A DNA stretch of 64,000 nucleotides. It comes from an uncultured Clostridia bacterium. GTDB lineage: Bacteria > Bacillota > Clostridia > TANB77 > CAG-508. This document shows, one piece after another, positions 23,562 to 36,315 of the stretch. Below the pieces are notes generated by a model. The model saw only the letters and a list, made by a program, of their open reading frames with translations, searched no databases and was not told the DNA's origin. Position 1 is the first letter of the stretch. Every line of letters begins with the position of its first letter. The position numbers and the translations under genes are program-made. The stretch is from contig CAOSLI010000005.1 of assembly GCA_948524275.1 (NCBI GenBank), positions 16,968-80,967 on the forward strand. The letters run 5' to 3'.

Positions 23562-23670
23562 TTCAACCAAAGGGGACGTGCACTTTTGGTTGACCAAAAG
23601 GGACAGGTTACACAACATCAACCAAAAGTACGCGTCCCAAACGGTTGACAATTTGGGACAGGTTGCTGTA
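23562..23670. repeat. intergenic palindromic repeat, copy A (GGGGACGTGCACTTTTGGTTGA ... TCAACCAAAAGTACGCGTCCC plus GGGACAGGTT units)
   Basis: A long imperfect inverted repeat. The family recurs at 24251, 30481, 33612, 35143 and 36284. Confidence 0.8.
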
Positions 23671-23789
23671 ATTAAAATTGTAATAAATAATTTTATAAAA
23701 TACACAAAATGGACACAAACCTATTGTAAAATACTAAAATACAATATAGATTATAACATTAAAAAAATGTAAGAAGAAAGGGAACAAAT

Positions 23790-24212
23790 TTGGAATTTCA
23801 AGACGAATTAGTAACAAAGAATGAAAATGAGATTAATATGATGTCGCCTTTAACTTGGGCATATGTAGGTGATAGTATATATGAAATGTACATAAGAACA
23901 TATCTTAGTAATGCAAGCAATTTTAACCCACATAAACTACATATTCAATCAATTAAATATGTAAAGGCTGCGGCGCAGGCAGATATTGTGAAGAAACTAG
24001 AATTAACAGATGATGAAAAGGAAATAGTAAGAAGGGGCAGAAATACTGAAAGTCATCATTTGCCTAAAAATGCTTCGCATGAAGAATATGCGTATTCGAC
24101 AGCATTTGAAGCCCTAATAGGATATTTATATTTGACTAAGCAAAATGATAGATTGAAAATTATACTAAATAATTGTATTAACATTGTAAATAAGATAATT
24201 TCAAATCATTAA
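23790..24212 (+). CDS. mrnC: Mini-ribonuclease 3
   Basis: AYVGDSIYEMYIR, an RNase III-like signature; about 140 aa. Confidence 0.75.
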   Translation: MEFQDELVTKNENEINMMSPLTWAYVGDSIYEMYIRTYLSNASNFNPHKLHIQSIKYVKAAAQADIVKKLELTDDEKEIVRRGRNTESHHLPKNASHEEYAYSTAFEALIGYLYLTKQNDRLKIILNNCINIVNKIISNH

Positions 24213-24250
24213 ATGGTAATTTAATTATATAAAAAATATAAGTTATATAA

Positions 24251-24318
24251 GGGACCGTCCAAAATGGCTACAATTTCAACCAAAAATCAACCAAAAAGGA
24301 CCGTCCCTATTGGTTGAA
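24251..24318. repeat. intergenic repeat, copy B; it ends in the ribosome-binding site of the ABC gene
   Basis: GGGACCGTCC...CAACCAAAAAGGACCGTCCCTATTGGTTGAA. Confidence 0.7.
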
Positions 24319-33744: not shown

Positions 33745-35142
33745 ATGCCTAAAACTAAAATAGAAGAGATGGACAGAAACATCTACAATATAAAAAATAA
33801 AGATGAATACAGTTATAAAACAATAGGATTAACTGAAGATGTCATACGAGATATATCTAGGAGAAAAGACGAGCCAGATTGGATGTTAGATATAAGATTA
33901 AATGCATTAGAGACATATGACAAATTAGACATGCCAACATGGGGACCAGATTTAAGCGAATTACACATGAGTAAAATTGCAACATATGTAAAACCTAAAT
34001 CTGATATGAAAAAAACTTGGGATGATGTGCCAGATGATATAAAAAATACATTTGATGCATTAGGAATACCAGAAGCAGAAAAGACATCTTTAGCGGGAGT
34101 TGGAGCTCAATATGACTCAGAGATAGTTTATCATAGTATAAAAGAAGAACTTGTAAAACAAGGAGTAATATATACTGATTTTGACACGGCGGTCAAAGAA
34201 TATCCTGATTTAGTAAGAGAGTATTTTACTAAATGTGTGCCTATTACAGACCACAAGTTTATAGCGCTTCATTATGCGGTATGGTCAGGTGGTTCTTTTG
34301 TCTATGTTCCAAAAGGAATAAAAGTGGACATCCCGCTACAATCATATTTTAGATTAAATGCACCAGGAGCAGGACAATTTGAGCATACACTAATAATTGT
34401 TGATGAGGGCGCTAGCTTGCAATTTATTGAAGGTTGTTCAGCTCCAAAATATAATGAAATAAATTTGCATGCAGGATGTGTAGAATTATTTGTAAAAGAT
34501 AATAGTTACCTTAGATATTCAACAATAGAGAACTGGTCAAAAAACATGATGAACCTTAATACGAAGAAAGCAATAGTTGGAAAAAACGGAAAAATTGAAT
34601 GGGTTACAGGATCATTTGGATCTAAGATTTCAATGTTATATCCAATGAGCATTTTGAATGGAGAAAATGCGATATGTGAATTTACAGGAATATCATTTGC
34701 AGGAAAAGGACAAGATTTAGACACAGGACTTAAGATAGTTCATAATGCGCCTAATACTTCATCAGTTGTAAACTCAAAATCGATTTCAAAATCTGGTGGA
34801 GCATGTACATTTAGAAGTAATGTATGGGTTAGACCAATTGCTAAAGACTCTAAAGTAACTGTATCGTGTGAATCACTTATGCTTGATAGCGAATCTCGAT
34901 CTGACACAATACCAGTAAATAATATAGAAACCGACGAAGTAGAATTTTCACATGAAGCGAAGATTGGAAAAATATCAGACCAAGCAATATTTTATTTGAT
35001 GTCAAGAGGCATATCAGAAGAAGAAGCAAAGGCAATGATTGTTAGAGGATTTGCAGACCCAATATCAAAGGCACTTCCAGTCGAATATGCGGTAGAAATG
35101 AACAACTTAATCAATTTGGAACTAGACGGAAGCATAGGATAA
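33745..35142 (+). CDS. sufB: Fe-S cluster assembly protein SufB
   Basis: 465 aa with conserved SufB blocks. Confidence 0.9.
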   Translation: MPKTKIEEMDRNIYNIKNKDEYSYKTIGLTEDVIRDISRRKDEPDWMLDIRLNALETYDKLDMPTWGPDLSELHMSKIATYVKPKSDMKKTWDDVPDDIKNTFDALGIPEAEKTSLAGVGAQYDSEIVYHSIKEELVKQGVIYTDFDTAVKEYPDLVREYFTKCVPITDHKFIALHYAVWSGGSFVYVPKGIKVDIPLQSYFRLNAPGAGQFEHTLIIVDEGASLQFIEGCSAPKYNEINLHAGCVELFVKDNSYLRYSTIENWSKNMMNLNTKKAIVGKNGKIEWVTGSFGSKISMLYPMSILNGENAICEFTGISFAGKGQDLDTGLKIVHNAPNTSSVVNSKSISKSGGACTFRSNVWVRPIAKDSKVTVSCESLMLDSESRSDTIPVNNIETDEVEFSHEAKIGKISDQAIFYLMSRGISEEEAKAMIVRGFADPISKALPVEYAVEMNNLINLELDGSIG

Positions 35143-35200
35143 TTCAACCAAGGGGACGGGCCTTTTGGTCGACCAGAGGGACAGGTCTTTGTAGTTGGAC
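35143..35200. repeat. intergenic repeat, copy E
   Basis: TTCAACCAAGGGGACGGGCCTTTTGGTCGACCAGAGGGACAGGTC. Confidence 0.7.
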
Positions 35201-35219
35201 AAATTAAAGAGGAGAAAAG

Positions 35220-36260
35220 ATGGAAAAAATGACTTTAAACGATACGCCAGTTAGAACGGCCAAGAATTTTGGAATAAATGACATAACATTAGACATAGAA
35301 ATTCCTGAAATCAGAGAATTTAATAATTGTATGATTATATCATATGAAAGTGACAGCTTTAAAATGAGTGACCTATTTATGGGTGTGTCAAAGAAAAAAA
35401 TAACTACAAAAATAGGACTAGAACTTAATAAAAATTATGGCATAACATTAACTGTACCAGAGGGTGTAAATATAGAGAAGCCAATAATATTAGACTTTGA
35501 CTTAGATGAAGAAAATAGTGTTTTAATTGATAATATCAAAATTGTTATGGAGAAAAATTCGGAAGCTGATTTTATATTGAAATATAATACTAATGAGAGT
35601 AAATGTTTTCATTACTTAAAGCAAGAGACTATTTTAAAAGAAAATTCTAAATGTAGCATAACCATTGCTAATATGTTAATACAAGAATCAGAGAGTTTTA
35701 TTGCTATTGAAAATAAAATAGAGGCAAGTGCTAAGTTAGAACATATAATTGTTGATTTTGGCGGAGATAAGAAGATATCGAATTATTATTCAAAGATAGA
35801 AGGAGATTTTGCAGAAAATAATTTGAAAACAATTTATTTAGGAAACAATAACGATACAATCGACATAAACTATAATATAGATATTGTAGGCGAAAATGCA
35901 ATATGCAATATTGAAACTCAGGGAGCATTGAATGATAGCTCTTACAAGAACTTCAAAGGAACAATAGATTTTAAAAAAGGGTGTACGAAGGCTAAAGGAA
36001 TAGAAAATGAAAACTGTATGATACTATCTGAAAGTGCTAAATCTAAATCACTTCCAATGTTACTTTGCCATGAAGAAGATGTAGAAGGTGAGCATGGAGT
36101 ATCATCAGGTAAAATAGATGAGGCAAAGTTATTTTATATAATGACAAAAGGTATATCTTATGAAGATGCTAAAAAGCTAATTGTTAAAGCCAATTTTAGT
36201 AATATAATAAGAGAAATTAAAGATGAAGAATTACAAAAGGAAATTATAGAAAAAATTTAG
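35220..36260 (+). CDS. sufD: Fe-S cluster assembly protein SufD
   Basis: Position in the operon and the SufB/D fold C-terminus. Confidence 0.8.
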   Translation: MEKMTLNDTPVRTAKNFGINDITLDIEIPEIREFNNCMIISYESDSFKMSDLFMGVSKKKITTKIGLELNKNYGITLTVPEGVNIEKPIILDFDLDEENSVLIDNIKIVMEKNSEADFILKYNTNESKCFHYLKQETILKENSKCSITIANMLIQESESFIAIENKIEASAKLEHIIVDFGGDKKISNYYSKIEGDFAENNLKTIYLGNNNDTIDINYNIDIVGENAICNIETQGALNDSSYKNFKGTIDFKKGCTKAKGIENENCMILSESAKSKSLPMLLCHEEDVEGEHGVSSGKIDEAKLFYIMTKGISYEDAKKLIVKANFSNIIREIKDEELQKEIIEKI

Positions 36261-36315
36261 AAATATTATGAGGAGTAAATCAAGGCCCATCCCCTTGGTT
36301 GAAAAAGGAGAAAAG

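Follow-up and report, generated by a model that had tools for sequence, protein, structure and literature searches.

Mosaic palindromic repeats between operon genes of an uncultured Clostridia-like bacterium

The repeat copies and the genes around them

The stretch of contig CAOSLI010000005.1 analysed here (64,000 nucleotides in full, henceforth the window) comes from an uncultured, low-GC (30%), gut-type Clostridia-like lineage. It contains six copies of a palindromic repeat, designated A to F, and a seventh (G) lies a short distance beyond its end in another contig of the same species; the same-species sequence that was read totals ~68 kb and holds these seven loci. The neighbouring genes encode an RbgA-type GTPase, Mini-III (with a Ribonuclease_3 domain), an ABC exporter, two membrane-protein paralogs, SufC, SufB, SufD, a cysteine desulfurase and a NifU-like protein, and their identities are those guessed in a first-pass annotation made from the sequence (rbgA/ylqF-type, mrnC, ABC, membrane paralogs and suf genes). 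The coordinates of the copies and of other features are collected in Table 1.

A strong promoter-like site lies upstream of sufC, and the only terminator-like hairpin is found beyond the NifU-like gene. There is no + strand terminator-like site at any copy, and no U-tract follows any of them, so that copies D, E and F lie inside the suf transcription unit. Lacking a U-tract, the copies were also rejected as intrinsic terminators or attenuators. The placement of the copies between co-directional genes, which the first-pass annotation had pointed out, is uninformative as a preference, since 58 of the 67 junctions in the window are +/+.

Five independent copies, in the window, in the same-species contig L084 and in relatives, end 1-6 nt 5′ of a ribosome-binding site. 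Copies B and F both terminate in TTGGTTGA, and A-rich sequence and GGAG come next; the R-type unit of copy B stops 3 nt 5′ of the ribosome-binding site. Thus the earlier observation that several copies run into a Shine-Dalgarno sequence holds for B (ending TTGGTTGAAAAGGAG) and for F (ending TTGGTTGAAAAAGGAG). Copy G ends in GGTTGAAAAAAGGAG directly before the start codon of its downstream gene, abutting the ribosome-binding site. Note that the ABC exporter gene 3′ of copy B is split into open reading frames (ORFs) of 101 and 622 amino acids by a 1-nt insertion around 24619, when compared with the intact 760-amino acid ortholog in the relative L087; this is either a pseudogene or an assembly error.

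Copy C is placed differently. It overlaps the 3′ end of a membrane-protein ORF, and supplies its last 17 codons (INQRGRALLVDQKGQST) together with the stop codon (30530-30532), in agreement with the first-pass annotation. The similarity of this protein to its downstream paralog ends at residue 361 of 380, i.e. before the repeat-encoded tail. The two paralogous membrane-protein loci lie in tandem, are 31% identical and have no Pfam match. Both are split alike into overlapping ORFs in different frames (240 + 380 and 215 + 366 amino acids). That both loci are divided in the same manner speaks against random damage, and suggests a true pair of genes or programmed frameshifting.

Table 1. Positions of the repeat copies and of other features. 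Coordinates are those of the window unless a contig is named.
Feature	Position	Strand	Location	Composition or remark
Copy A	23562..23685	+	between rbgA (stop at 23560) and mrnC	full element: L unit 23563-23593; truncated-unit module 23594-23609; spacer; inverted R unit 23618-23648; second GGGACAGGTT module 23655-23664; AT-rich tail
Copy B	24251..24319	+	between mrnC and ABC gene	partial variant element: GGGACCGTCC motif; tandem 11-mer TCAACCAAAAA x2 (24276-24297); one R-type unit 24287-24317
Copy C	30480..30565	+	3′ end of membrane-protein ORF	full element: L unit 30480-30510; R unit 30535-30565
Copy D	33610..33722	+	between sufC and sufB	full element: 12-mer AACCATAGGGGA x3 (33614-33649); L unit 33636-33666; R unit 33691-33721
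Copy E	35145..35200	+	between sufB and sufD	partial element: variant L unit (GGGGACGGGCCTTTTGGTCGA); GGGACAGGTC module; decayed right arm
Copy F	36280..36306	+	between sufD and true sufS start	one-unit remnant (TCAAGGCCCATCCCCTTGGTTGA)
Copy G	~2.6 kb past window end (contig L084)		between peptidase S66 gene and HD-domain gene	
Sub-variant in relative L076	12320-12374 (L076)		sufS-sufU	stem TGTCAAA/TTTGACA; AAAGGGGAC motif and tandem 5′ half-stem duplications kept
Promoter-like site	32768		upstream of sufC	
True sufS start	36316	+	after copy F	
SufS false N-terminal extension	36268-36315	+	through copy F	
HD-domain protein false N-terminal extension	13946-14017 (L084)		through copy G	
ABC exporter gene, split	24332-26564	+	3′ of copy B	
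Membrane-protein loci	28750-30532; 30586-32269	+		tandem paralogs
'Skipping-rope' RNA motif	38153-38237	+	directly 3′ of NifU-like gene	
Terminator-like hairpin	38242-38270	both	end of suf operon	13 bp
PBECR3-domain gene	38254-38688	-	beyond suf operon	
Lipoprotein_Ltp/dockerin gene	39325-40131	-		
RelB antitoxin gene	40890-41219	-	beyond suf operon	
tRNA gene	41477-41557	-	beyond suf operon	
RhuM-family genes	1736-2773; 17949-18938	+		
Direct-repeat pair	17729-17904; 20020-20196		upstream of second RhuM gene; start of Bro-N-domain gene	diverged

Anatomy and predicted folding of the repeat

The building block of the family is a 31-nt imperfect palindrome, TCAACCAAAGGGGACGYGCACTTTTGGTTGA. Six sites in the window have this unit, as do a seventh just beyond it and some in relatives. 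Its 21-22-nt core, GGGGACGYGCACTTTTGGTTGA (the 21-mer is also written GGGACGNGYACTTTTGGTTGA), has six matches in the window when up to three mismatches are allowed, and these are both arms of copies A, C and D; by contrast, the 22-mer has no match in 100 dinucleotide-preserving shuffles. The half-stem TCAACCAAAAG is matched 15 times in the window with at most one mismatch, against 1.8 expected, and 13 of these 15 matches fall within the listed copies. A repeat finder recovers the family, as D2/D3 and as inverted pairs. Family sequence is present at all six sites originally proposed, although copy F is a 23-nt remnant that can be recognized only by comparison with a longer copy at the same site in the relative L080, and with the copy in L077.

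In its full form, seen in copies A, C and D, the element is made up in order of a 31-nt unit, a truncated-unit module (CCAAAAGGGACAGGT; CCAAAAGGGACAGGTT), a spacer of ~8 nt and an inverted unit. Two inverted units around a linker of ~24 nt form an element of 85-110 nt with a predicted hairpin of ~30 bp. The termini are inverted (TTTCAACC...GGTTGAAA), and there is no element-specific ORF. The sequence GGGACAGGTY, which had first been taken as a spacer, is better described as a truncated unit; taken alone it shows no significant enrichment, with four matches against 1.3 expected, a number equalled in 5 of 100 shuffles.

The composition of the family is mosaic. Unit, truncated-unit module, spacer and inverted unit are all present in A, C, D and the copy at the E site of the relative L076, while E and G consist of unit and module only and the copy in L087 is a solo unit. 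The one family takes in single and truncated units as well as variants whose half-stems are duplicated. Tandem duplication of the 5′ half-stem is recurrent: a 12-mer is repeated three times in D, an 11-mer twice in B and GTCAACCAA twice in the L076 copy, and there is a four-fold repetition in a sub-variant found in L076. The triplication in copy D that had been noted earlier is exact, with 3.0 repeats of AACCATAGGGGA. We infer that the duplications arose by hairpin-stimulated slippage.

When 14 units taken from the window and from related loci are aligned, GGGAC proves invariant and CTTTTGGTTGA conserved, with TTT and one G invariant and the other positions at least 90% conserved. By contrast, positions 7-10 of the 5′ half-stem are variable. 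Each unit has a long loop, of 11-12 nt, whose sequence is conserved. The asymmetry with which the 21-nt core is conserved suggests that a protein recognizes it. The left flanks of the units read (T/C)AA followed by a run of T; no GTAG or other fixed tetranucleotide was found beside the units. Apparent direct repeats of 8-9 bp in the flanks (at G, F, the L076 copy at the E site and the L077 copy at the F site) often resemble ribosome-binding sites and do not rise above mismatched-flank controls, so that they give no ground for claiming a target-site duplication.

Very stable RNA hairpins are predicted for copies A (-47.4 kcal/mol, z -6.4), C (-48.5 kcal/mol, z -9.0) and D (-48.5 kcal/mol, z -6.8). 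The arms of copy C are 97% complementary over 29 nt. The earlier statement that each copy folds into a long hairpin is upheld for these three, but not for B (a weak fold, z -1.5) or E (z -2.7), nor for F, which has no significant fold (z 0.0). The L076 copy at the E site, in which both arms are kept, has a predicted hairpin of -45.4 kcal/mol (z -5.6), so the hairpin that defines REPIN-type elements is predicted for A, C, D and this copy, with energies of -45 to -48.5 kcal/mol and z of -5.6 to -9.0. In the predicted folds the ribosome-binding sites are unpaired. On comparing the four full copies we found no compensatory change in any of 25 stem pairs, so that it is only the palindromic identity of the sequence that argues for the fold.

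Gain, loss and decay of copies at orthologous sites

Same-species contigs, 99.7-100% identical, were retrieved by exact-protein look-ups. Relatives with 80-86% DNA identity were found via SufD and RbgA homologs, together with the more distant L081 (76% identical). Within the species, L001 is 100% identical to the window over 4.4 kb except for a single difference, i.e. two rather than three 12-mers in copy D.

Between species the same junctions are found both filled and empty. In L076 the D site (sufC-sufB) is empty, with a spacer of 10 nt, and the F site (sufD-sufS) is also empty. The E site (sufB-sufD) of L076 holds a full two-armed copy, which is orthologous to window copy E since it shares its unusual unit variant. 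In L077/L078 the E site is empty (24 nt), and the F site carries a copy in the opposite orientation. The copies at the E and F sites of L080 are decayed, and window copy F is an internal-deletion remnant of the longer form in L080. Copies A and B are both absent from L087 and from L090; in L087 mrnC abuts the ABC gene, and a solo 31-nt unit lies just upstream of the mrnC ribosome-binding site. The entire ~124-136 nt of copy A is missing from the orthologous spacer in L087 and L090, giving a BLAST break at 23560|23697. No copy was found in the 21 kb of L081 that were examined.

Presence/absence polymorphism at orthologous sites is thus seen for A, B, D, E and F, and the relatives carry private copies. 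One of these is the sub-variant between sufS and sufU of L076, in which the outer stem is wholly changed, GTGTC...GACAC replacing CAACC...GGTTG, and for which a fold of -17.9 kcal/mol (z -3.7) is predicted. The spacers of relatives at the same junctions are 10-25 nt long. Decay is seen at the E site, where the window copy has no intact right arm whereas its ortholog in L076 keeps both arms. We conclude that the gain or loss of sites takes place over the time in which species diverge, and that copies decay afterwards.

Time and again, small palindromic repeats break metagenome assemblies and cause gene starts and ends to be called wrongly. Both effects are seen here. Amongst Logan contigs, which come from independent short-read assemblies, L001 and L002 end and L074 and L075 start inside copy E, and two contigs from different samples end inside copy G; such breaks are expected from the behaviour of k-mer assemblers at repeated sequence. 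In public assemblies SufS (422 amino acids) and the HD-domain protein (206 amino acids) are called from upstream in-frame ATGs, so turning the repeat into a false N-terminal extension; for SufS, the ORF that starts at 36268 reads through copy F. Comparison with orthologs places the true starts of both genes just after the ribosome-binding site that follows the repeat. Together with the repeat-encoded C-terminus of the membrane protein, these are the practical consequences of the family at this locus.

An exact-match scan with an 18-mer from the arm (ACCAAAAGTRCRCGTCCC) gave 21 matches in the genomes of 185,579 species (a single genome per species), 48 in JGI metagenomes and none in viral contigs. 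Every one of the 69 is an isolated chance match, lying in DNA of 37-72% GC and having no similarity in the flanks. No similar DNA was found in plasmid and phage records. From the lack of any true match we conclude that the source lineage is absent from those collections and that the family is private to it. No Rfam family matches the copies at the gathering score; at a permissive threshold (E<=5) there were only spurious matches to microRNA precursors, of 31 bits (threshold 95) and 22 bits (threshold 79). Known structured RNA and riboswitch families were therefore rejected. Integron attC sites were rejected because RYYYAAC/GTTRRRY does not describe the ends and the genes on either side are housekeeping ones, and a CRISPR array because the spacing is not regular.

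We note some further features of the window. Where the suf operon ends, directly 3′ of the NifU-like gene, there is a strong match to the Rfam 'skipping-rope' RNA motif (69.6 bits against a gathering score of 36.7), and the bidirectional terminator-like hairpin comes straight after it. Beyond the operon the PBECR3-domain, RelB antitoxin and tRNA genes lie on the opposite strand, and this may be a small variable or defence-type islet. A nearby gene encodes three Lipoprotein_Ltp repeats and a dockerin type I domain, and contains internal tandem DNA repeats of 141-144 nt. In the left part of the window two diverged genes of the RhuM family are ~71% identical in DNA over 300 nt, and of a further, diverged pair of direct repeats one member lies upstream of the second RhuM gene, the other where a Bro-N-domain gene starts. 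These point to duplicated phage- or island-like cassettes.

Origin of the family and comparison with known repeats

The copies most probably represent a lineage-specific, mosaic, non-autonomous and non-coding family of interspersed palindromic repeats, with an architecture like that of REPINs and bacterial interspersed mosaic elements (BIMEs). The elements have been repeatedly gained or lost during the divergence of a narrow, uncultured, low-GC Clostridia-like clade. They survive where insertion is tolerated, i.e. where a spacer of 10-25 nt separates a stop codon from the ribosome-binding site that follows; there both genes are left intact and the insertion can persist. Copy C shows an occasional alternative, in which the element replaces a dispensable C-terminus. 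The copies later decay by deletion and slippage. The initial suggestion of a class like that of repetitive extragenic palindromes (REPs) and BIMEs, or of MITEs (transposable elements of the miniature inverted-repeat type), is borne out by the anatomy, by filled and empty sites, by decay, by the extra copy and by the assembly breaks; further copies do exist, and the copies match no known riboswitch or terminator class. Mobilization would occur in trans, through an enzyme whose gene lies in another part of the genome. Since hairpins of 29-31 bp are transcribed inside operons, some incidental effect on the mRNA is likely, and the co-transcribed hairpins probably act as incidental substrates for double-stranded RNases or as barriers to exonucleases.

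Several observations weigh against this interpretation. A Pfam scan of ~60 window ORFs found no Y1/RAYT, DDE or other transposase, and a protein-database search for ORF ends encoded by the repeat, in which a chimeric element was translated in six frames, gave 27 word candidates, none at E<=10. Direct repeats in the flanking 9-mers average 7.08 of 9 positions, compared with 6.75 of 9 in mismatched-flank controls; the flanks of copy G do form a 9/9 direct repeat, but this is equalled by 5 of 132 control pairs. The dispersal of the family is known from just the seven loci in the ~68 kb read from the species, with the contig breaks inside copies as an indirect sign of a wider distribution. Between the window and L076, 29 of 29 nt agree in the L unit of copy E while the flanking genes are ~82% identical, which may point to constraint or gene conversion there. 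Lastly, precise deletion, rather than insertion, can also produce a pattern of presence and absence.

The identity of the copy E unit is also an argument for a different explanation, that the repeats are selected intercistronic RNA modules, kept for their function whatever their origin. The hairpins would be cleaved by RNase III or Mini-III, or would block 3′-5′ and 5′-3′ exonucleases, and so set differing stabilities for sufC versus sufBDS and for rbgA versus mrnC. Very stable hairpins are predicted inside transcription units, with the ribosome-binding sites left unpaired, and the copies end repeatedly just before such a site. The mrnC gene, encoding Mini-III, is itself flanked by two copies, and the stems hold ACCA/UGGU, which by analogy might be a Mini-III site, as it is of the WSSW type that this enzyme prefers and ACCA is tolerated (PMC5141509); however, WSSW motifs are common by chance. 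There is a precedent in the Correia elements, which are bound or cut by RNase III and change expression (PMC2649163). Yet sister species lack copies and manage with spacers of 10-25 nt at the same junctions, the stems show no covariation, the orthologous copies E and F decay, and the L077 copy is reversed. These points disfavour a strongly selected RNA function, and we regard this explanation as unlikely. A role for the elements in RNA stability or processing is plausible by analogy with such systems, but the tuning of expression ratios as a selected function is not favoured.

It is much less probable still that the repeats are DNA operators for a dimeric protein, with half-sites TCAACCAAA / TTTGGTTGA, making up a regulon or a set of sites that organize the nucleoid. 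The conservation of GGGAC and CTTTTGGTTGA while the 5′ half-stem varies would be expected of recognition rather than of pairing alone, and REP and BIME elements do bind proteins such as IHF and gyrase. But the sites lie inside operons, downstream of promoters, and no candidate regulator was found beside them; moreover the flanking genes are functionally unrelated (ribosome assembly, an ABC exporter, membrane proteins and Fe-S assembly), and the same junctions in sister species have no sites. Equally slight is the chance that the elements are mobile promoters, formed by TTGACC in the core and a -10-like hexamer 17 nt further on, or mobile terminators. Copy C contains TTGACC-17-TAATAT (the site at 30507) and, on reading the sequence, copy D contains TTGACC-17-TAACAT, and Correia elements are able to create promoters (PMC2649163). 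However, promoter-like matches occur at chance level in this AT-rich region (110 against 102.7 expected) and the -10 of copy A is poor, while terminators are opposed by the lack of + strand U-tracts and of any terminator match in Rfam.

The preferred interpretation, an interspersed repeat family of REPIN/BIME-like architecture, could be taken further. The elements might constitute a living REPIN-like population, deposited preferentially by a single-copy transposase at the boundaries between stop codons and ribosome-binding sites inside operons, and the host might use them, with their ACCA/UGGU-containing stems, as RNase III or Mini-III processing modules that uncouple the expression of adjacent cistrons, including the two copies bracketing the Mini-III gene. 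We think this rather improbable. The suf operon offers a natural test case for the effects of hairpins on mRNA processing, with elements in three consecutive gaps, each of which is missing in a sister species.

The family itself appears to be undescribed, having no match in anything searched. Its kind is well known, i.e. REP-, BIME-, REPIN- or MITE-like elements within operons, and it is no new kind of system. A REPIN is defined as two inverted REPs with a spacer that form a hairpin, and the Pseudomonas GI REPIN is 89 bp long (PMC3337134). The present elements resemble REPINs and BIMEs in having short units that are imperfect palindromes, in forming inverted doublets with a variable spacer and a hairpin of ~85-110 nt, and in the coexistence of singlets, doublets and complex mosaics. 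They are likewise extragenic, GC-rich compared with their surroundings, lineage-specific and subject to mutational decay. They differ in that there is no sequence similarity and no 5′ tetranucleotide of the GTAG type, and in the long unit loop of conserved sequence. Nor was a RAYT gene identified among the window ORFs scanned, and the host is a low-GC Clostridia-like lineage. Among the RAYT groups of a published survey, 2 and 3 (Enterobacteria and Pseudomonas) were the only ones tied to abundant repeats, whereas Clostridia simply have members of group 1 (PMC5581495).

The Correia elements of Neisseria (CREE/NEMIS) are similar in several respects, being elements of ~100-150 nt with inverted ends that lie near genes, are co-transcribed and form long hairpins. 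They too are present or absent between strains, and they can affect expression via RNase III or by promoter creation (PMC2649163). Their sequence is unrelated, and the defined terminal inverted repeats, the TA target duplication and the IHF site are features of Correia elements, none being demonstrated here. Bacterial MITEs such as RUP and BOX of pneumococcus and ERIC of enterobacteria share the small size, the non-coding and intergenic character, the inverted termini and the insertion polymorphism; unlike these, the present family showed no parent insertion sequence with matching ends in the window or the other loci retrieved, has no supported target-site duplication, and is highly modular rather than of fixed length. 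Copy C recalls the Rickettsia palindromic elements in being read within an ORF and contributing a peptide tail, with the difference that a C-terminus is replaced rather than a domain being entered in frame, and that all the other copies are non-coding. Overall, the family modestly widens the range of REPIN/BIME-like architecture, for the most part studied in the Proteobacteria, to take in an uncultured low-GC lineage.

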